From an uncultured Candidatus Saccharibacteria bacterium (GTDB taxonomy: Bacteria > Patescibacteriota > Doudnabacteria > UBA920), in assembly GCA_964650255.1 (NCBI GenBank), contig CAZYQT010000005.1:2006-66005 (forward strand): a stretch of 64,000 nucleotides of DNA. Direction: 5' to 3'. The notes under the pieces were generated by a model that was not told the DNA's origin, made no database searches, and worked only from the letters and a program-made list of their open reading frames with translations. Positions 4,719-43,157 of this stretch are shown piece after piece; within the stretch, counting starts at the first letter, position 1; each line of letters opens with the position of its first letter. A program made the translations under genes and the position numbers.

Positions 4719-4812
<94 letters not shown>

Positions 4813-6372: not shown

Positions 6373-8934
6373 TTAAACCGGTACAGCCACAGGAGCTTTT
6401 TGGATTTCGAATATTACTTCATCATTTTTTACGTCTGCGGCAATAGTAGTACCGGAAGAAATGTTTTGTGAAATAATTTTCTCGGCCAATGGATCGCTAA
6501 TTAAATCTTGGATGTTTTTGCGAATGTAGCGCGCGCCTTGCAAAGGGTCAAAACTTTTTTCAGAAATATACTTGATTAGCGCAGGAGTAACTTTCAGGGT
6601 GACTTGTTGCATAGCAAGACGCCGTTGAACATCACCAAATTGAATAGTGGTGATCTTGCGTAATTGCTGCATGCCTAGTGGGCGGAAGATTAACACTTTG
6701 TCGATGCGGTTCAAGAATTCTGGGCGCAAATCTTGCTTTAGTTTTTCTAACAGGCCAAGTTTAATCCGATCGTATTCTTTTTCAAGTTTAACTTTTTGGT
6801 CTTCTTCCATTTCGCGGTCCGCAAAACCAATCTTCTTAGCCTGGGCATTCAGTTCCTGCATACCTAAGTTAGATGTCATAATGATAACAGTGTTGGCAAA
6901 ATTAACCCGTTTGCCCTGAGCGTCAGTTAATTGACCATCTTCCAAAATTTGCAGCAAGATGTTGAATACCTCTGGATTAGCTTTTTCGATTTCATCAAAC
7001 AAAACCACAGAGTAAGGCTTGCGTCGCACAGCTTCGGTTAAGCGGCCGCCTTCTTCGTAACCAACGTAACCTGCTGGCGCGCCAACTAAGCGCGACACGT
7101 TGTGGCGTTCCATGAACTCAGACATATCGATGCGGATTAACGCATCAGGATCTTCAAATACTTCCTGGGCAATCATTTTCGCGGTTTCTGTTTTTCCCAC
7201 TCCTGTAGGCCCCAGGAACATAAATGAGCCAATCGGGCGCTGTGGATCTGCAAGACCTGCGCGTGAGCGGCGAATGGTTTTGGCAATTTCATTAACTGCT
7301 TCATCTTGCCCAACAATTCGGGTTTTTAATATCTTTTCTAAATTAGCGAGTTTGCCAATTTCAGTTTGCGCTAATTTCTTCAACGGAATTTTAGTCATCA
7401 TGGAAACAGTGGCCGCAATGTCTTCGCCAGTAATAGAGTAAACCGGATCAGTTTCGGACTTTTCTTGGGTTTCTAAAATTTTCTTCTGATGCAATAGTTT
7501 TTCTTCCTGACTACGCAAATGCAAGGCAGTTGTAAAGTCTTGCGACAACACTGCTTTAGTTTTTTCTTCTTCCAAAGCAACAAGCTCGTTCTCAACTTTT
7601 TTACGGTTCTTCGCAGTTTTGGAGTTGCTGTGAATGCTGCGCAAAGCAGAAGCAGTTTCATCAATTAAGTCCACTGCTTTGTCTGGCAAGAAATGATCTT
7701 GAATATAACGGTCGGAAAGTTCCACTGCCGCGTTTATAGCTTCGTCAGTAATGGTAATTCGGTGATGCTTTTCGTAATTAGGGCGTAGGCCTTTCAAAAT
7801 CGCAATCGATTCTTCTTTGCTTGGCTCTTCTACTAATATAGATTGGAAGCGGCGTTCAAGTGCAGCATCGTGCTCAATATACTTCTTGTATTCCGATAGG
7901 GTAGTGGCACCAATGGTTCGGATTTCGCCGCGAGCTAAAGCAGGCTTCAAAATATTGGCAGCATCAAGACTGCCTGTAGAAGCGCCAGCGCCAATCATAG
8001 TGTGAAGCTCGTCTATAAATAGAATAACGTTTTCATCGGCTTTAACTTCATCAATAATTTGTTTTAAACGATTTTCAAATTCACCGCGGAACATTGAGCC
8101 GGCCACAACTAGAGCAAGGTCTAAAGAGAGAATGCGCTTGTCGAGCAAAATATCTGGCACTTCGCGGTTGGCAATAGCCAAAGCTAAACCTTCCACAATG
8201 GCGGTTTTACCAACACCAGCTTCACCAATTAACACTGGATTGTTTTTGGTGCGGCGACCAAGAATAGAAGTGAGGCGTTCAATTTCTTTTTTGCGACCAA
8301 TCACAGGATCGATTGAACCCATGGCTGCTTTTTTAGTTAGGTCCGTTGTGTAATACTCTAAGACACTTCCTTTGCGACCATCTTGTGGTCCACCAGGTTG
8401 ACCGTGCGCATGGGGATGCTCGCCAGCAGGACCAGCTGCTCCACCAGGCATACCTTGTTCAGCCGGCATGTCTGGAAATTTAGAAATATTTTCAAATACA
8501 GCAACCAGGTTATGTTCTAGCTCACCAATATCAATTCCAAGCTTGGACATAATTACCTTAGCTCGGTTTGGTTGAGTGGTTAGTAACCCATACAAAAAGT
8601 GTTCGGTGCCAATAAATTGATACCCATACTGACTGGCGACAATTGCTGAGCGCTCAATAGCTTGTTTGAGATGTTCTGAAAGTACTGGTTTCCAGGAGTC
8701 AGTTTCGTGATTCTTGTTGACCAGTACCAACTCGGCTTTAATAATTTCTGGCGTAATTTTCGCTTTTATTAAAATTTCCGCAGCAAAAGAGCTCTTTTCC
8801 GCCACTATGCCGAAAAGAAGGTGCTCTGTACCAATATGATCATGACGCAGCTCTTCCGAGGCCATTTGCGCTGCAATAAGCGCATTTTTAGCTCTACTGG
8901 AAAGGCGTTCTAATATAAATGAGAAATTATCCAT
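6373..8934 (-). CDS. clpC: ATP-dependent Clp protease ATP-binding subunit ClpC (two Clp_N repeats, two AAA+ modules, short M-domain)
   Basis: Walker A GEAGVGKT and GPTGVGKT, Walker B ILFIDELH and [10 protein letters not shown], and a ~70 aa middle domain (ClpC-like, not ClpB). I place the start at MDNFSF (8934) because CIRCE and the promoter overlap the 33-nt extension in the track. Confidence 0.85.
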
Positions 8935-9131: not shown

Positions 9132-9620
9132 ATGTTCAAAAAAAGTAAACCTTTAAAAAAACCTGATGATGCTGACCACGGCTATGAATACGCATTGTTT
9201 TTGTTGAACCTGAGCATGCGAACTGAATTTGAGATGCGCGAAAAAATGGCACGCCGTGGTTACTTTCCAAAAATTATTGACGAAGTGGTGCAGCGCTTGT
9301 TCGACGATCGCTACTTAAACGACGACCATTATGCCGAAGTATTTATCGATAGCTTAAAGCGCTATAAGTACTATGGCAGATTCATGATGAAAAAAAAGTT
9401 ATACGAAAAAAAATTGCCCAAAGAGGTTATTGAGGACAAGCTACATGAACTTGTTACTGAAGATGATGAACTAGATATTGCCCAGCGCTATGTAGAAAAA
9501 AACTTTGGCCCGTTAAAAGAAATCAAAAAATTTGATTACGATCAAAAGCAGAAAGTTATGCGCAGACTAATGGCGCGTGGCTTTGGCTTGGATTTAGTGA
9601 AAAGCTTGCTCGGGGTTTAA
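9132..9620 (+). CDS. recX: Regulatory protein RecX
   Basis: RecX-type three-helical-repeat pattern (YALFLLNLSMRTEFEMREKMARRGY...VVQRLFDDRYLNDDHYAEVFI...VMRRLMARGF). Confidence 0.8.
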   Translation: MFKKSKPLKKPDDADHGYEYALFLLNLSMRTEFEMREKMARRGYFPKIIDEVVQRLFDDRYLNDDHYAEVFIDSLKRYKYYGRFMMKKKLYEKKLPKEVIEDKLHELVTEDDELDIAQRYVEKNFGPLKEIKKFDYDQKQKVMRRLMARGFGLDLVKSLLGV

Positions 9621-10519
9621 TGCATCTCGCGCAATCTCTGAATGCGTTCTTTAATTGGTGGGTGCGTATTGAACAGCGCTGTTAGCCAGCCTGGTTCTTT
9701 GCCCTCACTGGCATTTTTAAATGGACTAGCAATGTACAAATGAGCAGTAGCTTTATTTGCTGCTTCCAATGCTTCGCTGTCTTCAGCGATTTTTTCTAGA
9801 GCCTGTGCAAGTCCTTCTGGGTAACGTGTTAGTAAGGCGCCAGAGGCATCAGCTAAATATTCTCGCTTGCGGGACACAGCCAGCTGTACAAGCATGGCAA
9901 CAATTGGTGACAAAATTGCCAGCACAATTCCAATGAGCAAGAAAACGCCGCCGCCTTCGTTGCTATTGCTACGTCTGCGCCCGCCAAATATTGATGCGCG
10001 TATCATCCAATCAGCGAGTAAGGTAATGGTGCCAACCAAGACTACTACCAAAGTCATAAAACGAATGTCGTAGTTGCCAATGTGCGAAAGCTCGTGAGCC
10101 AAAACCCCTTCAAGTTCGCTCTGGTTTAAGCGTTGCAAAGCACCTAGGGTAACACAAACCACAGCATTTTTTGGGTTACGACCAGTGGCAAAAGCGTTAA
10201 TCGCGGTATCGTCAATAATATAAACTCTTGGCATAGGGAGGCCAGCAGTAATACAAAGATTTTCCACGGTTTTGTATAACTGAGGCTGCGCTTTTAAATC
10301 AATTTCTTGCGCACCAGAAATGGCCAAGGTAATCTTGTCGGAATAGAAGTAGGAAATGAGCGCGGAAACAGAGCTGAACACCACAGCCACAAACAACAAA
10401 ATAGGTGAGCCATAATACTGAGACATTATAAAACCGAACCCAATAATAATTATTAGGAATATAAAGATGAGCAATACAGAGTACGCTTTGTTTTTACTGA
10501 CCTCGGTATAAGTTAGCAT
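9617..10519 (-). CDS. htpX: Zinc metalloprotease HtpX (M48 family)
   Basis: HEXXH (HELSHIGNYD), four TM segments, and the C-terminal ...HPPIKERIQRL characteristic of HtpX. Confidence 0.85.
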   Translation of the reverse strand: MLTYTEVSKNKAYSVLLIFIFLIIIIGFGFIMSQYYGSPILLFVAVVFSSVSALISYFYSDKITLAISGAQEIDLKAQPQLYKTVENLCITAGLPMPRVYIIDDTAINAFATGRNPKNAVVCVTLGALQRLNQSELEGVLAHELSHIGNYDIRFMTLVVVLVGTITLLADWMIRASIFGGRRRSNSNEGGGVFLLIGIVLAILSPIVAMLVQLAVSRKREYLADASGALLTRYPEGLAQALEKIAEDSEALEAANKATAHLYIASPFKNASEGKEPGWLTALFNTHPPIKERIQRLREMH

Positions 10520-10521
10520 TG

Positions 10522-11067
10522 TTAGTAATTAAGTGGGCCACGTCCGCATTGAGCAGGAACGGTAATTTTGTTAACGGTAATAAATTTGGCGGTTGGAGGG
10601 GCGTCGCCACCAGATGTTGGCATTGAGTAATCAGAAATAGTTATGCTGGCTTGACCCGAAATATGATCGCAGGCAACAAGTCCTATTGAGCCAGCATCAT
10701 TTACTTTTAGAGATTGCTTGGCAAGGTTTTGATTTGAAAAACAGAAAAAACTTTTTGCGGGAATACCAGTTACAGCAGTTGAAGTTTTAAAACATAGCGT
10801 GTCACTATATAGGCTGTCGTGTTCCATTCCAAACGTACCTCTAACTGTTTGCTGATCAGAGTCAGCCATCATTGTTTTAGGTGGAGTTTCTGAATTTGTA
10901 TCTGTGTCCACATTTTTTAATTGCTGGTTAGTGTTCATCATTCGATTGCCCATTACACCGACTGGGATATTAGAATTTTGGCCAGCACCAAAGGCAACAA
11001 CCCCGATTATTACAGCAGCAGCAAGGCCGGTGGCTACGCCGAGAAAAAACTTTTTATCGAATTCCAT
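10522..11067 (-). CDS. Hypothetical secreted or membrane-anchored protein (181 aa)
   Basis: N-terminal signal anchor (LGVATGLAAAVIIGVVAFGA), Cys-containing, no recognised domain. Tightly linked to htpX and lemA. Confidence 0.45.
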   Translation of the reverse strand: MEFDKKFFLGVATGLAAAVIIGVVAFGAGQNSNIPVGVMGNRMMNTNQQLKNVDTDTNSETPPKTMMADSDQQTVRGTFGMEHDSLYSDTLCFKTSTAVTGIPAKSFFCFSNQNLAKQSLKVNDAGSIGLVACDHISGQASITISDYSMPTSGGDAPPTAKFITVNKITVPAQCGRGPLNY

Positions 11068-11078
11068 AAATTTATTTA

Positions 11079-11627
11079 TTAAAACTTAACTTCGACCGGC
11101 TGTTGTTCTGGGCCGTTGTCATCTATGTCAAAGAAATTGCGTTTTGCAAATCCTAGCATTGATGCAAATAGGTTGGTTGGGAAAACTTCAATTTTAGTAT
11201 TGTAGTCACGGACATTGCCGTTGTAGAAGCGGCGAGCAGCTTGAATTTTGTTTTCTGTATCTGTTAGATCGGCTTGTAGCTGCATAAAGTTTTGGTTGCT
11301 TTTCAAATCAGGATAATTTTCAGCTACAGCAAACAAGCTTTTTAAAGTACCAGAAAGTTGGTTTTCATCTTTAGCCATTTCTTCTGGAGTCTTGGCGCCC
11401 ATGGCTTGAGTACGCGCTTGGGTAACACGCTCTAGCACGCCAGATTCTTGGGCGGCATAACCTTTGACTGTGTTAACCAAATTAGGAATCAGGTCGTAGC
11501 GGCGCTTAAGTTGCACCTCGATATCTGCCCAAGCTTCGTCAACTCGATACCGTGAGCGGATTAAAGAATTGTAGATAATGGCAGCAACTGCAACAATTGC
11601 GACTATGATCAAAATTAAGATTATCAT
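11079..11627 (-). CDS. lemA: LemA family protein
   Basis: N-terminal TM plus LemA core (RYDLIPNLVNTVKGYAAQE...RRFYNGNVRDYNTKIEVFPTNLFASMLGF). LemA-HtpX is a common gene pair. Confidence 0.8.
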   Translation of the reverse strand: MIILILIIVAIVAVAAIIYNSLIRSRYRVDEAWADIEVQLKRRYDLIPNLVNTVKGYAAQESGVLERVTQARTQAMGAKTPEEMAKDENQLSGTLKSLFAVAENYPDLKSNQNFMQLQADLTDTENKIQAARRFYNGNVRDYNTKIEVFPTNLFASMLGFAKRNFFDIDDNGPEQQPVEVKF

Positions 11628-11698
11628 ATTGTTTTATGAATTAATGCTTTTCCTTATTATACCAGGAAACCCATTTATTGGTAATGTATACTATAGAT

Positions 11699-12214
11699 AT
11701 GTCAATTTTTAATGAAATTTTAAGATTTGCGATCCCATGTTGGGTGATTAACATGTCTTTGAATGGAATTTTTGTTGCATCAATATATTTTCCCAAACTA
11801 ACTGCTTTTGATAAACCTTTGGATGCTGGCAAGTTTTGGAACGGCCGACGCATTTTGGGAAACGCCAGAACTTGGTACGGGTTACCTGTTTCAGTTACAG
11901 CAGGGTTTTTAATTCACCTAATAATTAGCCACAATTTTAAGCATGCTCTGTTAATTGGAATTTTGAATGGCTTAACGGTTTATGTTGGAGATATTCTGGG
12001 GAGTTTTATTAAGCGGAGGTTAAACTTTCGCGATGGCCAGTTTTTACCTCTCGTTGACCATGGTGATTACGTAATAATTACAGGAATTGTATTTGGCTTG
12101 TTGCAAATCTTTCCCTGGAAAGTGATTGGTTTGGCTCTTTTGATAACGTATCTAGTGCACCCAATCGTGACCTACTTAGCCTTTCTGGGAAAGTGGCGGA
12201 ATGATCCTTTGTGA
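11699..12214 (+). CDS. CarS-like membrane protein (CDP-archaeol synthase / DUF46 family homologue)
   Basis: Motif pattern PCWVINMSLNG...PLDAGKFWNGRRILGNARTWYGL resembles the CarS signature (PayvaN...pID.G...G.RilGdGKTwrG). Four or five TM segments. The start could instead be at 11678 or 11753. Confidence 0.5.
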   Translation: MSIFNEILRFAIPCWVINMSLNGIFVASIYFPKLTAFDKPLDAGKFWNGRRILGNARTWYGLPVSVTAGFLIHLIISHNFKHALLIGILNGLTVYVGDILGSFIKRRLNFRDGQFLPLVDHGDYVIITGIVFGLLQIFPWKVIGLALLITYLVHPIVTYLAFLGKWRNDPL

Positions 12215-12262: not shown

Positions 12263-12544
12263 ATGTTAAGCCGAGAAGAAGTCATCAAAATCAGCCAAAT
12301 GGCTCGCATAAAGCTTCAAGAAGATGAGATCGAAAAGTTCCAAAAGGACCTCTCGTCTGTTTTGGATTATGTAGATGAATTAAAAGCGGTTAATACTGAT
12401 GGGCTAGAGATTGTTTCTAGTGTGACCGGTTTGGAAAATGTGGAGCGCGAAGATAAGGCCGTATTGATTGACTACCAGGAAGAAATTTTGGCCAACGCGC
12501 CGGAACGCAGGGATCGATACTATAAAGTGAAATCAATTTTATAA
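12263..12544 (+). CDS. gatC: Asp/Glu-tRNA amidotransferase subunit C
   Basis: A 93 aa GatC-like sequence whose stop overlaps the gatA start (TAATG). Confidence 0.85.
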   Translation: MLSREEVIKISQMARIKLQEDEIEKFQKDLSSVLDYVDELKAVNTDGLEIVSSVTGLENVEREDKAVLIDYQEEILANAPERRDRYYKVKSIL

Positions 12545-14052
12545 TGGCTAATTGGGAACAGTTAGAGCTGCATGAGCTGCGCGAAAAATTAGACAACAAA
12601 GAAGTTTCGTCTGTTGAACTGACGAAATATTTTTTGGCGCGGGTAAAAGAATTGTCGCCGGTTGGCGATTCGCCAGAAGTACGTGAAAAGTTGAACGCAT
12701 TCATAACTTTGTGTGAAGACGAAGCTTTGGCGCAAGCTGTAGAAGCTGATGAATACATGGCCGCGGGTGGTAAGTCTAATCCACCATTGTGCGGCATTCC
12801 GTTTGCAGCGAAGGATTTATTTTTGACTAAAGGCATTCGCACTACTGCAGCATCAAAAATTTTAGAGAACTACATCCCACCATATGATTCTACTGTGATT
12901 GCGAAGTTGAAAGAGCAGAAAGCAGTGATGATTGGTAAGACTAATATGGATCAGTTTGCGCATGGCTCTTCCGGCGAAACTTCCTTTTATGGTGCAACAC
13001 GAAATCCGTGGGATACCACGCGCATGCCTGGTGGGTCTTCTAGTGGTAGCGCGGCTGCGGTTGCAGCAGGGCTTGCCCCTTGGACTTTAGCAACAGAAAC
13101 TGGCGGCAGTATTCGCCAGCCGGCATCGCTTACAGGAGTTAGTGGATGGAAGCCAACTTATGGCCGAGTTAGTCGCTATGGCGTGGCCGCGATGGCATCA
13201 AGTTTGGATAGCCCTGGTGCAATGGCACGCAGTGTAAAAGATTTAGCAATGATAGCGGAAGTAATTTCCGGGCAAGATGCAAAAGATTCCACAACTGGTC
13301 CGTACGATGTGCCAGCATATTTTGGTGAACTCAACGCAGATATACAAGGAATGAAAATCGGTGTGCCTAAAGAATATTTTGTTGATGGTATGCAGCCAGA
13401 AGTTCGCACGCGCGTGGAAGAAGCGATTGAAGTTTTGAAAAGCAAAGGCGCGGAAATTGTAGAAGTCAGTTTGCCGAACACGAAGTATGGCTCTTTGGTG
13501 TATGCAATTGTGTGCCCGAGTGAAGTATCATCGAACTTAGCGCGCTATGATGGCATCCGCTACGGCCACTCCACGCAAGAAGGTAAAGATTTGTTTGAAG
13601 TGTATGCTAAGAGTCGCGCTGCGGGTTTTGGTGATGAAGCCAAGCGCCGTATTATGACCGGCACTTATGTTTTGTCGGCTGGTTATTACGATGCTTACTA
13701 CAAAAAAGCGCAAGCCGTGCGTCGCTTGATTTTGAATGAGTTTGAAGAAGTGTTTAAGCAAGTTGATGTATTAGTTGCGCCGTCGTCGCCGAATGTTGCT
13801 TTGCCTTTAGGTAAAGCGGCTGACGATCCCTTGTTTGGTTATATTGCTGATCAGTTGAATATTCCAGGGTCTCTTGCTGGAACACCGGGACTTTCTATAC
13901 CTTGTGGTTTCGCTGAAGCAGATGGCAAGCAATTGCCAGTCGGTTTACAAATTATTGGCCCGCAATGGGGCGAACAAAAAGTCTTTAATGTTGGCGCTGC
14001 CTATCAGGAAGTAACTGATTGGCACACTAAGATTCCCGAAACTAATATATAA
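12544..14052 (+). CDS. gatA: Glu/Asp-tRNA amidotransferase subunit A (amidase signature family)
   Basis: Amidase signature GGSSSGSAAAVAAG and catalytic K/S context (AKDLFLTKGIRTTAASK). Confidence 0.9.
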   Translation: MANWEQLELHELREKLDNKEVSSVELTKYFLARVKELSPVGDSPEVREKLNAFITLCEDEALAQAVEADEYMAAGGKSNPPLCGIPFAAKDLFLTKGIRTTAASKILENYIPPYDSTVIAKLKEQKAVMIGKTNMDQFAHGSSGETSFYGATRNPWDTTRMPGGSSSGSAAAVAAGLAPWTLATETGGSIRQPASLTGVSGWKPTYGRVSRYGVAAMASSLDSPGAMARSVKDLAMIAEVISGQDAKDSTTGPYDVPAYFGELNADIQGMKIGVPKEYFVDGMQPEVRTRVEEAIEVLKSKGAEIVEVSLPNTKYGSLVYAIVCPSEVSSNLARYDGIRYGHSTQEGKDLFEVYAKSRAAGFGDEAKRRIMTGTYVLSAGYYDAYYKKAQAVRRLILNEFEEVFKQVDVLVAPSSPNVALPLGKAADDPLFGYIADQLNIPGSLAGTPGLSIPCGFAEADGKQLPVGLQIIGPQWGEQKVFNVGAAYQEVTDWHTKIPETNI

Positions 14053-14057
14053 AATAT

Positions 14058-15683
14058 ATGGAAGAAACCAATATAGCACAACAAATTGAAACTAACGCCT
14101 CCACAGGTTCTCTTGTGGCTACTGAAAAAACGTCTGTGTGGAGATCAGTATTATTTTTTATTGGTACAACAGTTTTATTCGGACTGATTGCAGCAGTGTT
14201 AACAACTGCTTTTCCGAACTATTCAGGGTGTGGGTTTCCTCAATTCGGGCCGTGTGGTAATTTGGGAGGTTTTCCTATGGGTTATTTTTCGTTTCATGAT
14301 TTTAGCATTTTATGGATATCTATTGGTTTAATAGTTAATACTTTATTTTATAGTGCTATTGTGTTAGTCGCTCGGTTAATCGTCCTATTGTTAGCTAAAT
14401 TAGTCAAAGGGTCAAAGAGTTTAGTCTTAGTTATATTAATTTTACTATTACCAATTACAGTCCCAATTTTATTGTGGATTATTTCTTTGGTTGTCACATT
14501 TCCAGGTTCTTTAAGGGATGTATTGTTTTACTTAGGGGACTTACCTTATTTTATTGGAGATAAAATAGGGGTGATAGATACCGTGGCATATGTACCAATA
14601 GAAAGATATGTTTTGATGATTGAAATTCTTATATCTGGTACCGTATTATTTGCAGTATTCTACCTACTTACTTTTTTGAAATCAAGTTTCACAGTACATA
14701 AGTACTACAAATTACTGTTTATAATACTTGCTGTTATTTACCCGGTATTAACTTTTATACCCCACCCATCTTTAGCTGTTATCGACGCACCATCTTATGA
14801 AGATTTGCCATTTACGGTCAGGAATATAATTAAGACTCAAACAGCGCTGCGTTATAATTTAGAAATTAAGAGTTTTCCTGAGGACCAAAAAGTCTATAGT
14901 GTTAGAGTTTGCGCAGCTGATTCTGTGGCAGCTATTAAGGAATTTGGTTCCGATAGTCCTTGTGGTTTCAGTATTTCATACATGCGTAGTAATTCTGGTG
15001 TAATCGAAGATTCAGTCGGAGAAACTTTGTATGATAATGAATTTATCCCACATGCTGGAATAGAAGGTTTAATTCCATCCAACCTAACTGGGAAAGAAAA
15101 AAAACTTATTGTATTTATTGAGCCCCATACGGATGAAGGAGGGATTGTGAGGGGGCTTAGAACTTATGAAGTTAGCCTGGCCAATTATGAAATCAGGCAG
15201 GATTTGGGAATTCCGAAGCTTGATTTCCCAACTGGCTGGAAACAGTATAATAATTTTGATGGATATTCCATTGCTGTCCCCGCAGATTATGTAATATATT
15301 CCAGTATCGATCGGAGCAGTGCTGAACCATGGATGAGGGAAGCCTGGGAAGGCTCGCATCGGGTAAATATTGGAATCAGCGAAAAAGCAGTTGCTGAAAC
15401 TGAATCCCCTCAAATTCACGTTAGAATTCTAGCCAATAACCTTTCCCCTGAAGAAGCACTGACGATGTATATTTCAGAAAATAAATTTATAAATCCTAAG
15501 GGCAGTATTAAAAAAGTTGCTTACCAAAACTCTGATTCATACCGCTGGGATGGGGATGGAACAATTGGCTCACCATTGTATGTAATGTTAGTTTCCCAGG
15601 GAGATCAGTATTTTGTACTGCAACAAGATACAGATGACCCCATCTTAACTCAGATTGCAAATTCATTCACAATTTACGAGTAA
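14058..15683 (+). CDS. Hypothetical polytopic membrane protein (541 aa) embedded in the gatCAB operon
   Basis: Starts 5 nt after the gatA stop and ends 1 nt before the gatB ATG. It has ~7 TM helices in the N-terminal half and a ~270 aa soluble C-terminal domain with no family I recognise. AT-rich relative to gatA and gatB. Confidence 0.6.
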   Translation: MEETNIAQQIETNASTGSLVATEKTSVWRSVLFFIGTTVLFGLIAAVLTTAFPNYSGCGFPQFGPCGNLGGFPMGYFSFHDFSILWISIGLIVNTLFYSAIVLVARLIVLLLAKLVKGSKSLVLVILILLLPITVPILLWIISLVVTFPGSLRDVLFYLGDLPYFIGDKIGVIDTVAYVPIERYVLMIEILISGTVLFAVFYLLTFLKSSFTVHKYYKLLFIILAVIYPVLTFIPHPSLAVIDAPSYEDLPFTVRNIIKTQTALRYNLEIKSFPEDQKVYSVRVCAADSVAAIKEFGSDSPCGFSISYMRSNSGVIEDSVGETLYDNEFIPHAGIEGLIPSNLTGKEKKLIVFIEPHTDEGGIVRGLRTYEVSLANYEIRQDLGIPKLDFPTGWKQYNNFDGYSIAVPADYVIYSSIDRSSAEPWMREAWEGSHRVNIGISEKAVAETESPQIHVRILANNLSPEEALTMYISENKFINPKGSIKKVAYQNSDSYRWDGDGTIGSPLYVMLVSQGDQYFVLQQDTDDPILTQIANSFTIYE

Positions 15684-15684
15684 T

Positions 15685-17208
15685 ATGGAACTAAAAGGCT
15701 ACAAACCAGTTATAGGACTCGAGATCCACGTGCAGCTTGCTACTAAGAGCAAGATGTTTTCGAGTGCGCCGTGCGATCCCGAAGAAAAAATTCCGAACAC
15801 AAATATAGACGAGGTCGCAACTGGCGAGCCCGGCTCTTTGCCGGTGATTAACAAAGAAGCAGTGCGTTTGGGCGTTATGGTGGGCATGGCTTTGAATTGC
15901 GAGATTCCGGAATATTCTAAGTTTGACCGCAAACATTATTTTTACCCTGATCTTCCAAAGGGGTATCAGATTTCGCAATTGGATCATCCTGTTGCGGCAA
16001 AGGGCTATGTAGATATTTCTGTTCCTGCGGATCCGAATCGTGAAGGAAACAAAGATGCTTACACAAAACGCATTAGAATTACGCGCGCGCATTTGGAAGA
16101 AGATGCCGGGAAGAACACACACCCAGAGGGTTTGCCTTATTCTTTAGTAGATTTGAATCGCGCCGGCTGTCCGCTTTTGGAAATTGTAACTGAGCCTGAT
16201 GTCGAAACAGCAGAAGAAGCGCGCATCTTTTTGCAGGAGCTGCAGAGAATTGTTCGTTATGTGGGAGCATCAAGTGCAGATATGGAAAAAGGCACGATGC
16301 GCTGCGAGCCAAACATTTCGGTGCGTAAGCCTGGTGAAGAAAGTTTGCCGAAATATAAAGTTGAAGTGAAGAACATCAATAGCTTTAAGTTTGCCGAAGC
16401 TGCAATTAATTACGAAATTCCGCGGCACATTGAAATGCTCGAAGCAGGTGAGATGCCAAAGCAGGTAACCATGGGCTGGAATGAAAAGTACAACAAGACT
16501 GTTGAACAGCGCGAAAAGGGTGAAGCTAATGATTATCGTTACATGCCAGAACCAGATTTACCAGAACTCCATTTTACAGAAGAGTTTAAAGCAAAGCTTC
16601 GTGCCGAACTACCAGAATTGCCAGCACAAAAGCGCGTGCGTTTTAAAGCTGAGTTCGGCTTGGATGATGCAGGAATTGAAACTTTGCTCAACTGGAAGCA
16701 AATGAATGAGTACTTTGAGGAAGTAGTAAGTGAAATTGATGCATGGATGCTCACTGATGGAAATTCTGACAACCAAGACTTGCGTGCGAAGTTAATTAAA
16801 CTTGCTGCTAATTGGTGTGTGCAAGATTTTTCCGCATTGCTTAATGCAGAGCTTGCTAATCCACTTGAATCACGAGTTAGTGCGGAAAATATGGCAGAAT
16901 TAGTTAAGCTAATCGACAACGGAAAAATTTCTGGGTCTGCTGCCAAACAAGTGTTTAAAGTAATGTACGAAAAAGGCGGTGAGCCAGATATGATTGTCGA
17001 AGACTTGGGTTTGGTGCAGGTGAGTGATGCTGGTGCGATTGAATCAGCTATCGACGAAGTTATTGCAGCTAACGAAAAAGCTGTTGCAGATTTTAAAGCT
17101 GGCGAACAAAAATCATTTGGCTTCTTGGTCGGCCAAGTTATGGCGCACATGAAAGGCAAGGCCAATCCGCAGGTTGTAAATGAGTTGTTGAAGAAAAAAC
17201 TAAGTTAA
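15685..17208 (+). CDS. gatB: Glu/Asp-tRNA amidotransferase subunit B
   Basis: MELKGYKPVIGLEIHVQL...GxxxVRKPGEE... core and the C-terminal GatB/YqeY domain. The track start at 15655 is a TTG extension; the ATG is at 15685. Confidence 0.9.
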   Translation: MELKGYKPVIGLEIHVQLATKSKMFSSAPCDPEEKIPNTNIDEVATGEPGSLPVINKEAVRLGVMVGMALNCEIPEYSKFDRKHYFYPDLPKGYQISQLDHPVAAKGYVDISVPADPNREGNKDAYTKRIRITRAHLEEDAGKNTHPEGLPYSLVDLNRAGCPLLEIVTEPDVETAEEARIFLQELQRIVRYVGASSADMEKGTMRCEPNISVRKPGEESLPKYKVEVKNINSFKFAEAAINYEIPRHIEMLEAGEMPKQVTMGWNEKYNKTVEQREKGEANDYRYMPEPDLPELHFTEEFKAKLRAELPELPAQKRVRFKAEFGLDDAGIETLLNWKQMNEYFEEVVSEIDAWMLTDGNSDNQDLRAKLIKLAANWCVQDFSALLNAELANPLESRVSAENMAELVKLIDNGKISGSAAKQVFKVMYEKGGEPDMIVEDLGLVQVSDAGAIESAIDEVIAANEKAVADFKAGEQKSFGFLVGQVMAHMKGKANPQVVNELLKKKLS

Positions 17209-17212
17209 CTTT

Positions 17213-17818
17213 ATGCCAGAGCAAAGAGATCGAAGTATTATCAATTTTTTGTACGAAGTTGGAACCATGCGCCGTTTGCCGCGAATTCACAGTCAAACCC
17301 TGTTGTCTAGCGACACATCCGACACAATCGCCTCGCATTCATATCGTGTAGCAGTGATTGCTTGGTTTTTAGCAAAAATTGAAGGCGCTGACCTATATAA
17401 GTGTATGGCTATGGGTTTGTTCCATGATATTGCTGAAGCTCGTACTGGTGACCACAATTGGATTCACAAAAAATATGTAAAAATACATGATGAAGAAATT
17501 TTGGAAGACCAGCTTGGTCCGTTACCGTTCCCAGATCTGAAAGAGCTCATGGATGAATACGAGAAGCGCGAAAGTGCTGAATCAATTATTGCTAAGCAAG
17601 CTGACATCTTGGATCAGATTTTACTATTGCGCGAGTATGAGTGGCAGGGGAATAAAGAAGCGGCGATTTGGCTTCATGGTAAGGACGAAGACACCAACAA
17701 AGGTAGGGCGCAAATGAAAAAGCTGACTTTGCCATCGGCAATTAAGCTGGGCGAAATGATGTATGAAGTTGCGCCATCAGAATGGTGGGAAAATATTTGG
17801 ACCAGTAAAAATCGTTAA
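17213..17818 (+). CDS. HD-domain phosphohydrolase (YfbR-like 5'-deoxynucleotidase family)
   Basis: HD motif (SHSYRVAVIAWF...GLFHDIAEARTGD). Confidence 0.7.
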   Translation: MPEQRDRSIINFLYEVGTMRRLPRIHSQTLLSSDTSDTIASHSYRVAVIAWFLAKIEGADLYKCMAMGLFHDIAEARTGDHNWIHKKYVKIHDEEILEDQLGPLPFPDLKELMDEYEKRESAESIIAKQADILDQILLLREYEWQGNKEAAIWLHGKDEDTNKGRAQMKKLTLPSAIKLGEMMYEVAPSEWWENIWTSKNR

Positions 17819-17828
17819 ACAAAAATAA

Positions 17829-18704
17829 ATGTCATATTTAGGAATCATCTTTGCTCTGGTTGCGCTTTTTGCATGGGGCTTTGGTGATTTTTTTATTCAG
17901 CGAGCATCGCGCAAGATTGGGATTATGCAAGCGTTGTTTTTTAACACTCTTGCAGTTTCTGTAGTTTTGTTGCCATTCGTTTGGAATCAGATCCCCAATT
18001 TAGTTTCTGATCAAGTAACCTTTTGGGCGTTAATCGGCATTGGAGTAGCCTTCTTTTTTACCGGAACCTTGCAGTTTTATGTTCTAGAAATTGGCAAGCT
18101 TGCTGTGGTGGAACCGATTGCAAGCTTGGAGCTTCCGCTTACTGTTTTGATAAGTGCTGTGATTGGCGCAGAACTCCTGTCTGCTCCAAGTTATGTTATT
18201 ATCGCAATAGTATTTTTAGGTATTGCGTTAACCGTTAGTCCCCACGCATTTCACCTGGGCCATATCTTCCGTAGGCTTGAAAAAGGAACCTTCGTTGCAT
18301 TGTTAGGGGCCTTGGGTATGGCGCTGACAAATTTTTTGATGGGTCATGCGAGTCAAATTAGTTCGCCAGTACTAACCGTGTGGTTAGTAGACGTAGTGAT
18401 TTTGGTTATGGCCACTGTAATTTTGTTATATAAGAATCAGTTTAAGCATCTGTATCAAGATTTTAAAAAAGCCCCCGGAGCAATTATTGCTGAGAGCACT
18501 TTAGATAATATTGCATGGCTGGCATATTGTCTCGCGGTTATATATATACCAATTTCCATTGCTATTACTATTAGCGAAAGTTACATAATTTTAGCAGTAC
18601 TGCTCGGCATTTTCATTAATAAAGAAAAATTAAAACACCACCAAACGCTCGGGATAATCTTTGCGATTGGCGGTGTTCTGCTGTTGTCGTGGATGACGGG
18701 CTAA
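17829..18704 (+). CDS. EamA/DMT-family transporter
   Basis: Ten predicted TM helices in a duplicated 5+5 arrangement, with the typical EamA N-terminus (LVALFAWGFGDFFIQRASRKIG). Confidence 0.7.
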   Translation: MSYLGIIFALVALFAWGFGDFFIQRASRKIGIMQALFFNTLAVSVVLLPFVWNQIPNLVSDQVTFWALIGIGVAFFFTGTLQFYVLEIGKLAVVEPIASLELPLTVLISAVIGAELLSAPSYVIIAIVFLGIALTVSPHAFHLGHIFRRLEKGTFVALLGALGMALTNFLMGHASQISSPVLTVWLVDVVILVMATVILLYKNQFKHLYQDFKKAPGAIIAESTLDNIAWLAYCLAVIYIPISIAITISESYIILAVLLGIFINKEKLKHHQTLGIIFAIGGVLLLSWMTG

Positions 18705-37835: not shown

Positions 37836-39440
37836 TTAGTTTACTTTATATTCTGTTACGTAAACCCATGTTCCCACATAGGGTCTGACTTCAGCAAAAC
37901 TTTTTTGAACTACTTCAGTCCAGTTTTTTGGTGTAGTGGGTTTGCTGCCGCCGAAGCCGTTGGTCCACAATAGCCACACAGTGTCGCCGTGTCGTGTTGA
38001 ATCGGAAAAATTAAGGACTAGATCATCATCAGTGAGGATGGCAGTGCCAGCATAGTGAGGTAGGTCATGTGTGAGGTGGCCATCAGTAAAAAGTAGCGGC
38101 TTCACAGAAGTTTCGTTGTAGTATTTGTAGTTGAAAAATTCAAAACTACTACCCACATAAATTTTATGTTGCGGTTCAACATTGGCGGTAAGGTATGCGC
38201 TGGCTGCGGCCATTCCCGGTTTAGTTTCTAATTGGAGCTTATCCCAATAATTCCAAACTGAGTAAAGATTTAGTAAAACCAGAACCAGGCTAAGTAAAGT
38301 AGCTAGTTGTTTGATTTTAAATTTACTTAGGAATAACGCCACTAAAATAGAATAGTACGCGCTGCAGAATATGAAATAGCGCACTAAATAGACTGAGCTG
38401 TTGTTGCCTTGGAGTTTGGCAATTATATAAAAGAGGATTGCGCCGCCGAACGGAGCTAGGAATGCCAGTATCGCCAGCCATTTTTCGGTTTCTTGCAACT
38501 TACGAATTACTTGAACAATAATTAGTAAGGTTAACATGGTGACAAATATCCAAAGAGGATTTGGGATTTGCCAGGATCCAATTAGCGGAAGTTTGGTTAT
38601 AGAATTGGGTAATCGAATGAGTAATTCCCATAATGTTGATGGAATACTCCATTCATCCATTGGCGGGATCCAATATCCAGCGCCGACTTGCTTGAATTGG
38701 AACAAAAAGACTTTCAACCAAGGAATAAATAGTATACCAATTCCCAGACCCGACAGCACCATCCAGCCGTATCGTTTAAATTCACCTTTGAAGTTAATAA
38801 TGCAATAAATGATTGCGTATATTCCTAGGGCTGCAACAGTGAACAACAAATAATAGTGAGTGTAAGTTAGAATGGCACTACACAATGTGAAGACCGCATA
38901 GTAAATTAGGAATCGTTTTTTTAACTTTGTCTTCAGTACTATATTGGTTTTACTGGCGTAGTAAGCAGTTTGATTGCGCAGAGCAGCACATAGAGCTAAT
39001 GCGGCAATCACTGCAAAGAACGCACCCATGGTGTACATGCGGGCTTCAGTGACATACTGCACTTGAAAAGGATTCACTGCAACGAACAGCGCAGCCCACA
39101 AAGCGGCACCTCGGTTGTTAAAGGCATATTTTACTAGATAATAAACGCCAATGACTGTGCCAACTCCGAAAAGCACGGACATGCCTCGCAGTGAAAACAA
39201 AGAGTTGCCAAAAATATAAGACCAAATACGCAAGAAAATATAATACATTGGTGGATGAACATCCAAACCAATTCGGTGCATCATTTCGCCCCATGGGTAT
39301 TTAATCAGCAACGCAGAAAAAGCTTCATCGTGCCAAAGCGATATTGAAGTCAAATGCCACAAACGCAGTACGAGTCCTAGGGCAGCGATGCAAATTAAAG
39401 CGAAATTGGTGCTAACTAGACTTTTGGCTTTTTGAATCAT
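37836..39440 (-). CDS. GT-C family glycosyltransferase (PMT/ArnT-like, GT39/GT83), 534 aa
   Basis: First-loop DE motif (LWHDEAFSA), ~12 TM helices and a C-terminal soluble domain. Confidence 0.7.
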   Translation of the reverse strand: MIQKAKSLVSTNFALICIAALGLVLRLWHLTSISLWHDEAFSALLIKYPWGEMMHRIGLDVHPPMYYIFLRIWSYIFGNSLFSLRGMSVLFGVGTVIGVYYLVKYAFNNRGAALWAALFVAVNPFQVQYVTEARMYTMGAFFAVIAALALCAALRNQTAYYASKTNIVLKTKLKKRFLIYYAVFTLCSAILTYTHYYLLFTVAALGIYAIIYCIINFKGEFKRYGWMVLSGLGIGILFIPWLKVFLFQFKQVGAGYWIPPMDEWSIPSTLWELLIRLPNSITKLPLIGSWQIPNPLWIFVTMLTLLIIVQVIRKLQETEKWLAILAFLAPFGGAILFYIIAKLQGNNSSVYLVRYFIFCSAYYSILVALFLSKFKIKQLATLLSLVLVLLNLYSVWNYWDKLQLETKPGMAAASAYLTANVEPQHKIYVGSSFEFFNYKYYNETSVKPLLFTDGHLTHDLPHYAGTAILTDDDLVLNFSDSTRHGDTVWLLWTNGFGGSKPTTPKNWTEVVQKSFAEVRPYVGTWVYVTEYKVN

Positions 39441-39442
39441 AA

Positions 39443-41107
39443 TTATTGAACTGTGTATACAGCTAATACTGCTTGGTTAAATTTATTACGCCGTTCTAAA
39501 GTTAGTTTGGCTTCAGGGTGATACTGTTTGAATTTTTTAATATCAAAAATACTAGATTGCGTGAACACGAGCCGGTCTCCTGGCTTGAGATTCTTGAGTT
39601 CCCATGAGTTTTCGGGATCCACCTGTTGGTATGGGTTGCCTTTATCGCTTGTAAAATAATCCACGGTTTGAACAGAGAACTTATCAAGTATAAGGAAAGT
39701 ATTATTTTTGTTGCCCGTGTTGTTTAGATAATCACTGACATTGGTTAAGTCAGACCGGAACGAGTAGAAGTTTTCTGGGCTATTAGCAGCAAAAATAAAG
39801 TAGAGGATGTAGGTTTGTAAGATGAGTGCCGCAATAAATACAATCGTCTTTGCATGAAAGGCAAAAGATAGTAGATTTTTTTGCCACCCCTGAAGATAAG
39901 GCCAGTACTTATTCACCACCCGCGAAGTCCATTCGACAACCCACATTAAACCCACGCTGGACATAATAAATACTACTGGGATAGTACCAATCGCACGCAA
40001 GCCGTGAGGGATACCTTCGGCAGTGGTGATTACAGGGATGAGCATGGCCCAAAACCACCCAGCGAGCAAAAAGTATTTCCAGTCGAGTTTATTTTTTATT
40101 GGAGTGAAGACATACCGGGCCGCTAGGGCAGTGGCGCCGATCAAACCCAAGGCAAAAAATGGAGCAATAATAATAGATAGGAATGCTTCACCAGAAATGT
40201 TGTGGCGCCAATTTAGATCGCCTCCCCAGAAGTAGGCGCGCATACTAGTCCAGAACACTTCACCTAATGTGCCTATTAGATTGCCGTGGTTAAGCGCAGG
40301 GCTAAATACGGATACTTGTCCGCTGCGACCAATAAACGATCCGGCATGTGTCCAGAAGTAATAAGCTATCCATGAGATAAAGACTAAAAAGCTGGCAATT
40401 AGGCCAATAAATGGTCCGAAAAACTTTTTAATATTTTGGAAGCGCGGAGACTTAATGATATCAACAGCCAATGGCCACAAAATTGCAACAGCAACAAGCG
40501 GTACCATTATCCTGTAGGCAATGTAGGTATAAAAACCTAGAGCAAAGGTTGCACCGGTAAGCACCGCCCACATGTAACGTTTGGCTTTGGTGGCGGCTTG
40601 AAAAGCCATTAGGCCAAAAAAGAAAGTGAATGTAGTAAATAAAGGAATTAAATTGGCGCGAAAAGCTGTGCGAGACAAGACTACATGCCAACTCGAAACC
40701 GCCATAAAGAATGATGCCCAAAGGGCAAGATTAGTTGCGCGACTAGTAATGGCATTGGGTTTGTCTCCATCGCGACTGCGGCCAAAGATTTTAAACAAAG
40801 CTCGAGCAACTAAGAAACAACCCAGCACCGCAATTACACCAACTAGAGCTGAAACAATATGATGCTGCCACGGACCTTTGCCAAACAGCTCCACACTGCC
40901 CCATAGCATGTAAAAGAACAAAGCCTCTCGGCCATTGCCGCGCTCGTAAAATGGTTGCAACTGTCCTTGTTGCATCAAGTTAATATCAAGGCCATTAGCG
41001 GCTTCGTCTGGAAACAATCCGCCAGGCATCGCCATAATCTGGTAATACCTAAAGAAGATTGCCAGGGCCATTATGCCGACTAGGAGCCATTTTTGTTTTG
41101 GTGTCAT
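39443..41107 (-). CDS. GT-C family glycosyltransferase (PMT/ArnT-like), second tandem copy
   Basis: GGLFPDEAANG motif, 12 or more TM helices. The track start at 41263 adds a non-hydrophobic extension. I prefer MTPKQKW (41107) or MNSW (41143). Confidence 0.65.
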   Translation of the reverse strand: MTPKQKWLLVGIMALAIFFRYYQIMAMPGGLFPDEAANGLDINLMQQGQLQPFYERGNGREALFFYMLWGSVELFGKGPWQHHIVSALVGVIAVLGCFLVARALFKIFGRSRDGDKPNAITSRATNLALWASFFMAVSSWHVVLSRTAFRANLIPLFTTFTFFFGLMAFQAATKAKRYMWAVLTGATFALGFYTYIAYRIMVPLVAVAILWPLAVDIIKSPRFQNIKKFFGPFIGLIASFLVFISWIAYYFWTHAGSFIGRSGQVSVFSPALNHGNLIGTLGEVFWTSMRAYFWGGDLNWRHNISGEAFLSIIIAPFFALGLIGATALAARYVFTPIKNKLDWKYFLLAGWFWAMLIPVITTAEGIPHGLRAIGTIPVVFIMSSVGLMWVVEWTSRVVNKYWPYLQGWQKNLLSFAFHAKTIVFIAALILQTYILYFIFAANSPENFYSFRSDLTNVSDYLNNTGNKNNTFLILDKFSVQTVDYFTSDKGNPYQQVDPENSWELKNLKPGDRLVFTQSSIFDIKKFKQYHPEAKLTLERRNKFNQAVLAVYTVQ

Positions 41108-41141
41108 ATTTGGTATAATTGGTACTGCTAACCAAGAATTC

Positions 41142-41471
41142 ATGCCATACGATAAGCACACACAAAAAGCCTGGGGCATTGCAATTGTCCTTTTTATTAT
41201 AACACTGGTTGCTGTGTATTTCAAAATGCGCAACGCTCCAGACACTGTAGCTTTACGATACAATATTATCGTTGGCGTTAATCAGATCGGGAGTAAGTAC
41301 GAGTTGTTAAAAATTCCTGCCACTGGCTTGTTAATCGGCATTGTTAATTACTTACTCATTCGATTGCAGAAATTTGATAAATCATTTTTGCCATTTTTGG
41401 CAGCTTTGACCACAGTCATGGTTAATGCCTTTTTACTCATCGCAGTTTTATTTTTATTCCGCGTTAGCTAA
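41142..41471 (+). CDS. Hypothetical small membrane protein
   Basis: Three TM helices. A plus-strand TGgTATAAT at 41111-41119 supports a divergent transcript running into the GT2 gene at 41481. The start is uncertain. Confidence 0.35.
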   Translation: MPYDKHTQKAWGIAIVLFIITLVAVYFKMRNAPDTVALRYNIIVGVNQIGSKYELLKIPATGLLIGIVNYLLIRLQKFDKSFLPFLAALTTVMVNAFLLIAVLFLFRVS

Positions 41472-41480
41472 AGTTTTAAT

Positions 41481-43157
41481 ATGTTCCGCACTCGCACACG
41501 CAGAGAACGATTTTGGGAAATTTTACCTGGCCTTTCCTTTTGGACGGTTTTTTTGGGTTCTATAGTCTTGTCTTTCGTTAAACCAGTTTGGGCAGCGGTG
41601 TTTATTGTTTGTTTTGATTTGTACTGGCTACTAAAGGCTATGAACACTTCGATTCATTTAATTTCGAGCTATCGCAAATTTCGAGTGTACGTAAAAATTG
41701 ATTGGCTTTATTTGATTAGCAAGCTGCAAAATCGGTCTGAATTAATTGAGCATATGGAAGAACTCGGGGTCAAGGCCGTCAAGTCGCTAGAAAAAAGGTT
41801 TTATAAAACCGAGGTAGAGAAGCTGCGCACAATGCCAGATAATGGCGTAATTAAGCGCCCATATACAGACTTCGTGCATTTAATATTAGTACCGTTTGTG
41901 GATGAATCCGAGGAAGTTCTTACATCAACTATCGGAGCTTTGGCCAGTGCTCAGTACCCCCATGATCGAATGATTGTTGTTTTGGCTTCGGAAGAACGGG
42001 CTGGGGCAGAGGCACAAAAAGTTGGCCAAGCCATGCTTGCAAAGTTTAAAGATAAATTTGCACACATGTTTTTAACTGTGCATCCAGATGGCTTGGAGGG
42101 GGAAATAAAAGGGAAGAGCGCCAATGCCAGTTATGCGGTTTCTTCGTTGCTGCCAAAGTTAGAAGAACTTGGCATTGCAGAAGAAGAGGTATTAATTTCT
42201 AATTTAGACAGCGATACTATTGTGCACCCGCAGTACTTTGCGCGCGTGATGTATGCGTTTTTAACTTCTGAAAAACCATACCGCCGTAGTTACCAGCCAA
42301 TTGCGATTTACAATAATAATATTTGGGATAGCCCAGCATTTATTCGCGTGGTGTCCATTTCGAATTCGTTTTGGCAGTTTACTGAAAGTTCCCGACCCGA
42401 CAGGCTTCGCACGTTCGCTTCGCATACAATGACCCTTAAGGCCCTGCGTGAGGTTGGGTTCTGGAAAAAAGATATCATCAATGAAGATGGATTTATTTAT
42501 TGGCAGTGTTACTTGCACTATAAAGGTGATTACGAAGTGGTCCCGTTGTTTATTCCGGTTTCGCTAGATACTTGTCTGGCTGACACTTTTTGGCAAACGC
42601 TGATTAATCAATACAAACAGAAAAAGCGTTGGGCATACAATGTGGAATATTATCCGCATTTGGTGCCAGCCATGTTAAAGAGTAAAGCGCCATTTTGGGA
42701 TCGGATGTATAAGTTGTGGCAATACGTTGAAGGTGATTTTAACTGGGCTACGGCTAGTTTGTTGATTACGGTTTTGGGTTGGCTTCCTTTGTTTATTGGC
42801 GGGCCGGAGTTTAAGGAAACAGTGATTGCTTATAACTTACCGCATGCTACCCGCACTCTAATGACGATTGCAACAGGATTTTTAATTTTCAGTGTGTACA
42901 TCAATTTAATTTTATTGCCACCGCGGCCAAAGAAATACAGTGTGTGGCGTAGTGTGATGATGTATTTGCAGTGGGTACTGGTGCCGATTGTTTCTGTGGT
43001 GTTCGGAAGTTTGCCAGCCATTGAAGCGCAAACTAGATTGATGATGGGTTGGTATTTAGAATTCTTCGTAACGCCAAAGGCCCGCAAAGGCGAAGTAACA
43101 GCTTCTACAATGCGCGAAATGCAAGCCGCAGAAAGCTCAGCAGGAGGGCAAAAATGA
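41481..43157 (+). CDS. Membrane glycosyltransferase family 2, processive-type (cellulose/chitin/hyaluronan-synthase-like)
   Basis: DxD (NLDSDT), Q(Q/R)xRW-like (QKKRW) and multiple C-terminal TM helices. Confidence 0.7.
   Translation: MFRTRTRRERFWEILPGLSFWTVFLGSIVLSFVKPVWAAVFIVCFDLYWLLKAMNTSIHLISSYRKFRVYVKIDWLYLISKLQNRSELIEHMEELGVKAVKSLEKRFYKTEVEKLRTMPDNGVIKRPYTDFVHLILVPFVDESEEVLTSTIGALASAQYPHDRMIVVLASEERAGAEAQKVGQAMLAKFKDKFAHMFLTVHPDGLEGEIKGKSANASYAVSSLLPKLEELGIAEEEVLISNLDSDTIVHPQYFARVMYAFLTSEKPYRRSYQPIAIYNNNIWDSPAFIRVVSISNSFWQFTESSRPDRLRTFASHTMTLKALREVGFWKKDIINEDGFIYWQCYLHYKGDYEVVPLFIPVSLDTCLADTFWQTLINQYKQKKRWAYNVEYYPHLVPAMLKSKAPFWDRMYKLWQYVEGDFNWATASLLITVLGWLPLFIGGPEFKETVIAYNLPHATRTLMTIATGFLIFSVYINLILLPPRPKKYSVWRSVMMYLQWVLVPIVSVVFGSLPAIEAQTRLMMGWYLEFFVTPKARKGEVTASTMREMQAAESSAGGQK

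Follow-up and report, generated by a model that had tools for sequence, protein, structure and literature searches.

A predicted membrane protein gene between gatA and gatB of a Doudnabacteria genome and the turnover of accessory genes at this junction

Described insertions and related proteins

A gene inserted into gatCAB, the operon of an essential tRNA amidotransferase, is known from Moraxella, where the bro beta-lactamase gene is located in the gatAB intergenic region of Moraxella catarrhalis and M. bovoculi and has been spread by transformation (PMC4073114). The bro insertion changes the C terminus of GatA, and viability is kept (bioRxiv 10.1101/2021.03.29.437598). The locus analyzed here, from an uncultured, ultra-small CPR bacterium of the Doudnabacteria, resembles Moraxella bro (BRO-1/BRO-2) in that a co-oriented gene for an envelope-associated protein, here a predicted one, lies between gatA and gatB, is missing from close relatives and is tolerated. 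However, bro is recent and nearly clonal, encodes a known enzyme under antibiotic selection and has altered the GatA C terminus, whereas the gene described here, which encodes a protein of 541 amino acids (aa), is old (its copies in two lineages are 46% identical), lacks an assigned function and does not alter GatA.

Hotspots of integration between core genes are reportedly a general concept of bacterial genome organization. The gatA-gatB junction shares with them a conserved flanking pair that brackets variable content, including toxin-antitoxin and small selfish genes. It differs from them in lying inside the operon for the subunits of one essential enzyme, and in its inserts, which are mostly single, promoterless-looking, co-oriented and placed a few nucleotides (nt) from their neighbors, with no integrase, tRNA or repeats. 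A search for literature on the organization of gatCAB in CPR bacteria or Patescibacteria found no relevant paper. The use of the gatA-gatB slot is an event of a known kind, here in a new and broader form.

PsbP_2, DUF1795-DcrB and Mog1-PsbP proteins are abundant membrane-anchored extracytoplasmic proteins in CPR bacteria, and domains of the PsbP/DcrB/LpqN type serve in the envelope as binding or scaffold modules outside the cytoplasm. The C-terminal 150 aa of the 541-aa protein align over the whole domain with two proteins of this superfamily, P0004 and P0005. Typical members are anchored by a single transmembrane (TM) helix or by a lipobox, whereas the 541-aa protein fuses the domain to a predicted five-TM region and a beta-sandwich. 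This architecture was found only in the 541-aa protein and in its homolog P0001; the protein belongs to a new, tiny family that is partly built from a known domain type.

The gatCAB locus and the 541-aa protein

In the window, i.e., the whole stretch of 64,000 nt that was analyzed, all genes of the gatCAB operon are encoded on the + strand. The stop codon of gatC (12263-12544; 93 aa; Pfam GatC, 6.5e-21) overlaps the start of gatA (12544-14052; 502 aa; Pfam Amidase/GatA, 3.8e-142), the product of which is 82-83% identical to GatA of the related loci L001 and L081. The gatA stop codon TAA (14050-14052) is followed by the 5-nt spacer 'aatat' (14053-14057) and the ATG start codon of the 541-aa ORF at 14058 (14058-15683, + strand). 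The ORF ends with TAA (15681-15683), and a single 't' separates it from the ATG of gatB at 15685 (15685-17208; 507 aa; Pfam GatB_N, 2.4e-107, and GatB_Yqey, 1.9e-47). The junction sequences agree exactly with the placement between gatA and gatB and the spacing of 5 and 1 nt reported in the preliminary description of this DNA. A Shine-Dalgarno motif was absent from the 5-nt spacer and from the region upstream of every gene in the gatCAB operon. The sequence 'ATATGGAA', common to the starts of the ORF and gatB, was considered as a duplication of the gatB start, and the idea was dropped because 8 nt in AT-rich sequence are no evidence.

The ORF has a GC content of 0.368 and a GC3 of 0.290, as compared to 0.467 and 0.396 for gatA and 0.441 and 0.412 for gatB. 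Among the 52 ORFs of the window (mean GC 0.421, sd 0.027; mean GC3 0.394, sd 0.046), it ranks second lowest for both measures, and the soluble half of the ORF alone still showed a low GC3 of 0.31. The likelihood of its synonymous codons was within the range of the window. Thus, the composition is unlike that of both flanking genes, as had been proposed, but the deviation in GC and GC3 is modest and the codon choice unremarkable. A foreign origin would fit the low GC3 as well.

An identical protein with the same neighbors is encoded in the assemblies ENA ERZ27258499 (99.94% nucleotide identity) and Logan SRR8893623 (100%), in both cases without indels. Since these exact copies come from assemblies of other samples, a chimera and a sequencing error can both be dismissed as the source of the arrangement. 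When the ORF was compared exhaustively by phmmer to 1.84 billion cluster representatives, a single strong relative was returned, P0001, with 534 aa and a full-length identity of 46% (E 7e-143); its NCBI record, from a MAG of Candidatus Doudnabacteria, names it a hypothetical protein. In four assemblies, its gene likewise occupies the gatA-gatB slot, flanked by spacers of 18 and 8 nt; the identity of this genome (L081) to the window is 82% for GatA and 85% for GatB. According to the preliminary description, homologs with matching codon usage routinely found at this position across the phylum would mark the gene as a known lineage trait; the position is indeed shared, though narrowly, with one sister lineage only.

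In comparison to the P0001 locus, dN (Nei-Gojobori) was 0.50 for the ORF, 0.13 for gatA and 0.11 for gatB, i.e., the gene evolves about four times as fast as gatA and gatB. For the ORF, pN was 0.36 and pS was 0.78 (Nei-Gojobori); dN/dS proper is not computable with synonymous sites that are saturated, as they are in the flanking genes. The start of the protein ('ME..') is conserved, and identity to P0001 was 29% in the N-terminal tail, 38% in the TM region, 49% in the middle domain and 52% in the C-terminal domain. The family is tiny, with 5 relatives among 5.8 billion proteins, namely the full-length homolog P0001 and four proteins in which the similarity is limited to the beta-sandwich and part of the membrane region. 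No remnants of the 541-aa gene were detected in other gatA/gatB gaps, and the window holds no paralogs. A word-index search with the full ORF found no homolog; the representative of its own 90% cluster is a fragment of 54 aa, and words from the TM region saturated the candidates.

The AT-richness of the ORF, the lack of a database family and the low AF2 confidence would fit a spurious ORF, a pseudogene or an assembly chimera, and a pseudogene had been considered before. This reading has next to no probability and is already refuted by the 1.6-kb open frame that is kept in the relative with pN well below pS, by the intact and identical ORF in three assemblies, and by homology at the domain level with real protein families. 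Judged from these sequence comparisons, the ORF is a real, fast-evolving gene under purifying selection.

Hydropathy, AF2 helices and charge distribution predicted five TM helices (residues 31-52, 84-112, 121-147, 184-206 and 218-233) in a membrane region of residues 31-233 (14148-14756), instead of the approximately seven counted earlier. The soluble part, formerly given as one domain of about 270 aa, comprises about 305 aa and two domains, a middle beta-sandwich domain (~residues 245-385; 14790-15212) and a C-terminal domain (~residues 392-541; 15231-15680), all on the + strand. The topology was assigned by hand rules from hydropathy, AF2 helices, loop charges and Cys pairs. K and R residues cluster in loops 2-3 and 4-5 and are missing from loop 1-2, and the short K-rich loops AKLVKGSK and LKSSFTVHKYY were assigned to the cytoplasmic side. 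In this model, the N terminus would be inside, and the last ~305 residues up to the C terminus would be outside. All four Cys residues are in predicted external parts, with the pair C58/C66 in the first outside loop and the pair C285/C302 in the middle domain, and both pairs are conserved in P0001. C285/C302 is also kept in the more distant relative P0002 and was lost as a pair in P0003, P0006 and P0007. The Cys pairs fit disulfides without proving them, and each external domain is probably disulfide-stabilized.

The whole protein had no match in Pfam, NCBIfam, PDB sequences, PADLOC or PHROGs, and the null results for PADLOC and PHROGs therefore give no support to a defense or phage origin. 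Pfam searches at E <= 0.1 for the ORF and E <= 1 for P0001 gave no match save an irrelevant one to GLEYA (0.074). When the whole library was searched by phmmer, residues 383-540 matched P0004 (E 2e-4) and P0005 (E 5e-4). These two proteins reached 54.3 and 27.7 bits, respectively, with the PsbP_2 model PF18933 (cut-off 27); the 541-aa ORF does not reach the gathering score of this model. Alignment of the C-terminal domain (alignment A3) to P0004 by hhalign gave a probability of 94.8% (E 5e-8, 140 columns), and the model of this domain appears to match the DcrB, SciW, PA0094, Mog1, LpqN and PsbP folds. A word-index search with alignment A3 returned nothing and also missed P0001 itself. At the level of sequence, residues ~392-541 are thus assigned to a PsbP/DcrB/Mog1-like domain with whole-domain homology to bona fide members. 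The earlier statement that no family could be recognized holds for the TM and middle parts, but not for these C-terminal 150 aa.

The middle domain is a predicted C2/Ig-like beta-sandwich. AF2 models of the 541-aa protein reached a pLDDT of 46.8 from the single sequence and 50.6 from a 6-sequence alignment, and Foldseek comparison to the PDB gave generic Ig matches only (E > 1e-3). Sequence and profile searches of the PDB returned chance matches only (GST mu, E 0.05; FnIII domain, E 0.9). The sandwich is shared with P0002, P0003, P0006 and P0007 at 23-25% identity, including the motif 'PFxV...L...P(E/K)(E/D)', together with the preceding TM helices, which comprise nearly the whole TM region in P0003 and P0007 and the last helices only in P0002 and P0006; P0002 also has the Cys pair. 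In contrast to the 541-aa protein, these four lack the PsbP-like domain, and none of them has been characterized. The genes of P0002 and P0003 lie outside gat operons, and the neighbors of P0003 look non-CPR. The only invariant columns of the family are P251, F252, V254, L268, P274, G321, V352, Y518 and P528.

The gatA-gatB junction in related lineages

Among the first 80 GatA loci analyzed, non-relatives with adjacent gatA and gatB showed a spacing of about 0-40 nt, with three exceptions of up to about 150 nt, and large gaps were present only in the two closest relatives, L001 and L002. In L001 (83% GatA identity), the slot is occupied by the gene of a 230-aa protein with a single TM helix, and in L002 (69% GatA identity), a 401-nt spacer is free of an ORF. 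The 230-aa insert was considered as a shortened homolog of the 541-aa ORF and rejected (BLASTP E 0.04 over 25 aa; hhalign 0.1%).

A metagenome scan with lineage-specific C-terminal peptides of GatA yielded 80 further loci. The spacing census covered the 62 loci in which both genes could be placed, or 51 non-redundant loci after merging those that were at least 95% identical. Spacing within the lineage ranged from -4 to 2552 nt and reached 200 nt or more in 32 of 62 loci (27 of 51 after de-duplication). In nearly all cases, the longest ORF between the two genes is encoded on the + strand, spans the gap and either comes to within a few nt of the gat genes or overlaps them. By BLASTP, the inserts belong to at least 22 mutually unrelated families; this number of cargo families across the lineage sets the slot apart from the bro case. 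The inserts include two groups of four-helix-bundle proteins of the 23S-rRNA-intervening-sequence type (23S_rRNA_IVP), a DUF559 endonuclease, an MFS transporter, a six-gene block with a BrnT/CopG toxin-antitoxin system and DUF5674, a PemK/MazF toxin and many ORFans, several of which are membrane-anchored. Frameshifted or truncated remnants of four-helix-bundle genes were detected in the gaps of L110, L140 and L116.

The 541-aa gene is carried by 2 of the 51 non-redundant lineages. L087 (81% GatA identity) and L081 are equally close to the window, and in L087, gatA and gatB are 6 nt apart without an insert; the slots of L001 and L104 encode unrelated small proteins. In a rough neighbor-joining (NJ) tree built from the flanking sequences, the lineages with the 541-aa gene are interleaved with L087, L001 and L104. 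This branching pattern calls either for losses or replacements, or else for repeated gains.

Other junctions of the syntenic block were scored for gaps of at least 200 nt in the same set of loci. Of the co-directional junctions, M48-LemA had such gaps in 2/22, gatC-gatA in 6/60, holB-BNR in 0/10 and BNR-RRF in 0/5 loci. Pooled, these tight junctions amount to 8/97 as compared to 32/62 for gatA-gatB (Fisher p ~1e-9, a value that is only indicative because the loci are not phylogenetically independent). Boundaries between divergent or convergent genes were about as variable as gatA-gatB, with 12/24 for LemA-gatC, 22/31 for gatB-miaA and 8/9 for miaA-holB. Thus, in this lineage, gene turnover at gatA-gatB resembles that of an operon boundary, while its inserts are packed like members of an operon.

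Expression, origin and role of the 541-aa gene

No terminator was found at either boundary of the ORF, and promoter-like sites were not enriched (22 vs. 17.5 ± 4.2). Given this and the packing of 5 and 1 nt, the gene is most likely transcribed together with gatCAB. It probably entered the slot before the organism of the window and that of L081 diverged, and has since been kept by purifying selection in both lineages. Co-transcription with gatCAB, with translation by re-initiation or coupling, would provide constitutive expression without a promoter of its own, at a junction that seems to gain, exchange and lose co-oriented accessory genes repeatedly.

The 541-aa gene is probably an old, vertically retained accessory passenger that encodes an envelope protein, and not a partner of the amidotransferase, because unrelated accessory genes have repeatedly landed at gatA-gatB. 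That a gene of 1.6 kb was retained in the same slot of two lineages could still point to a functional tie to the expression of gatCAB. A lineage-specific partner of the amidotransferase had been proposed in the preliminary description, and the operon-tight spacing, the identical position in a second lineage and an additional 102-aa ORF between gatC and gatA of L081 would fit a fourth subunit or a membrane tether of GatCAB. The 30-aa cytoplasmic tail and the short loops would then anchor the amidotransferase or transamidosome, with the operon ensuring stoichiometric co-expression. However, the prediction places nearly all of the non-membrane protein outside the cytoplasm, conservation is lowest in the cytoplasmic parts (29% identity in the N-terminal tail), and the protein showed no similarity to GatC or GatF in Pfam. 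Its distant relatives P0002 and P0003 are not encoded beside gat genes, and the distribution also argues against a partner: only 2 of 51 lineages carry the gene, L087 has none, L001 and L104 have unrelated small proteins, and the slot of other relatives holds toxins, endonucleases and intervening-sequence (IVS) proteins. A fourth subunit or tether is therefore considered very improbable.

A foreign gene that landed in an essential operon, the other origin proposed at first, describes the locus better, but the event was not a one-off, and it was not recent, since an ortholog of 46% identity occupies the same slot in a genome with 82% identical GatA and 85% identical GatB. Recent horizontal acquisition, independently in the lineage of the window and in L081, by a mobile element or by recombination as for bro, is unlikely, but deserves consideration. 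In favor of it are the GC3 of 0.29 (second lowest of 52 ORFs), the extreme rarity of the family and the rough NJ tree, which pairs the window with the insert-free L087, and L081 with L104 and its different insert. As an accessory gene in a gatA-gatB slot, the ORF has the features known from bro, namely co-orientation between gatA and gatB, absence from close relatives and deviant composition. The features of a mobile element or integron cassette (repeats, an attC-like hairpin, a target-site duplication, an integrase or transposase) were not found at the ORF. Direct or inverted repeats bracketing the ORF did not exceed chance, mobile-element boundaries were not visible, no tRNA was present within 9 kb, and the junctions of 12 relatives had no common motif beyond the packing of stop and start codons. 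In addition, synonymous codon usage lies inside the range of the window, and protein searches found no donor lineage. As the two copies are only 46% identical and their synonymous sites are saturated like those of the flanking genes, a single old insertion with vertical descent and losses fits the data.

For the old passenger gene preferred here, the predicted protein would consist of a five-helix anchor with the N terminus inside, followed by an external C2/Ig-like sandwich and a PsbP/DcrB/Mog1-like alpha-beta domain. By analogy to DcrB, LpqN and PsbP-type domains, which are extracytoplasmic modules, the anchor and the two external domains suggest a role at the envelope or surface, in binding or scaffolding. 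An envelope enzyme or transporter, e.g., a polymerase resembling Wzy/O-antigen ligase or glycosyltransferase C, appears improbable. Weak, sub-threshold Pfam matches of P0002 to Wzy_C (E 0.009) and of P0003 to DUF6057 (E 0.008) point in this direction, as do several PMT_2-type glycosyltransferases encoded in the window. However, the scores for Wzy_C and DUF6057 fall far short of the gathering thresholds, these families would require more than five TM helices, and no conserved polar or catalytic residues stand out among the invariant columns.

Taken alone, the protein is one more uncharacterized envelope protein of CPR bacteria, now with a defined architecture. Its context is more useful: in one CPR lineage, the turnover of accessory genes at a junction between subunit genes of an essential enzyme is as frequent as at a boundary between operons, and the single-gene precedent of Moraxella bro is widened to a lineage-wide pattern. 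This provides a concrete model, open to counting, for the gain and loss of genes that ride on essential transcripts in streamlined genomes with few promoters, and a caution to annotators who apply 'guilt by association' to CPR operons. A further-reaching and improbable reading is that gatA-gatB in Doudnabacteria-like CPR bacteria is a dedicated promoterless site for gene capture and test expression, a recombinase-independent analog of an integron platform within an essential operon, and that the 541-aa ORF is a captured surface protein for host interaction that was fixed in two lineages. If so, the site would let streamlined episymbionts take up genes for surface proteins, toxins and selfish genes, express them and drop them again.

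Occupants of the gatA–gatB slot in related genomes

The intergenic slot between gatA and gatB, which holds the 541-aa membrane protein gene in the window, was occupied most commonly in the relatives by four-helix-bundle genes of the 23S-rRNA-intervening-sequence type (PF05635). Such genes or their remnants were located in the gatA–gatB gaps of loci L110, L126, L144, L129, L131, L164, L140 and L116; they split into two divergent groups, and frameshifted or truncated remnants were seen in L110, L140 and L116. Genes of this type were absent from the window. The largest inserts were those of L114 (5247–7798), with six co-oriented genes, among them those for a BrnT toxin, a CopG antitoxin and a DUF5674 protein, and of L155 (5313–6530), with a PemK/MazF toxin gene and an ORFan with four TM helices. 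In L002, from a Doudnabacteria MAG, gatA and gatB were separated by a spacer of 401 nt (7468–7868). This spacer contained no ORF of at least 50 aa on either strand and showed no similarity when compared with the four-helix-bundle inserts; either a decayed gene or a non-coding element might account for it.

The 541-aa protein belongs to a 90% cluster whose representative is a 54-aa fragment (P0009), and therefore searches of representatives cannot recover the full 541-aa protein. The close relative at locus L001 is labelled 'Candidatus Saccharibacteria', yet its gat genes group with those of Doudnabacteria-labelled MAGs.

Gene order on either side of the slot

Upstream, gatC lies directly downstream of a CarS-like gene (11678–12214, plus strand; CDP-archaeol synthase family PF01864, E 1.6e-18); the genome is that of a bacterial CPR member. 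At this position, L081, the locus with the 534-aa homologue of the 541-aa protein, carries three tiny ORFs, and in L001 LemA is followed by gatC without any intervening gene. Between gatC and gatA, inserts of at least 300 nt were found in 6 of 60 loci. A 102-aa hydrophobic ORF occurs there as an additional gene in L081 (6220–6528), the genome with the 534-aa homologue, and also in L082; it gave only a weak, sub-threshold Bax1-I match (E 0.067).

Downstream, the operon of the window is extended past gatB by two plus-strand genes. The first (17213–17818) begins 4 nt past the gatB stop and encodes an HD-domain phosphohydrolase; the second (17829–18704) encodes an EamA transporter. In L001, gatB is followed by miaA with no gene between them; in L081 the place is taken by a different gene of 148 aa on the opposite strand. 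Among the relatives, the gatB–miaA spacing ranged from -31 to 2972 nt.

RNA and sugar-related genes of the window

Rfam yielded three tRNA genes on the minus strand (2026–2099, 2596–2681 and 4722–4812) and no other matches over the 64-kb window. Among the 52 ORFs of the window, GC and GC3 both peak in an NDP-hexose 2,3-dehydratase-like gene (45200–45886, plus strand), at 0.507 and 0.535. This gene lies near glycosyltransferase genes of the PMT_2 (37836–41179) and GT2 (41481–43157) types, and may be a sugar-modification gene gained horizontally.

The ORFan between the M48 protease gene and LemA

The M48 protease gene (9617–10519) and LemA (11079–11627) flank an ORFan of 181 aa (10522–11067, minus strand) that has a TM helix at its N terminus and matches nothing in Pfam. 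Since these two neighbours are co-directional and at most 126 nt apart in 20 of 22 relatives, the ORFan is a second membrane-anchored, lineage-specific insert, in the same block as the insert between gatA and gatB.
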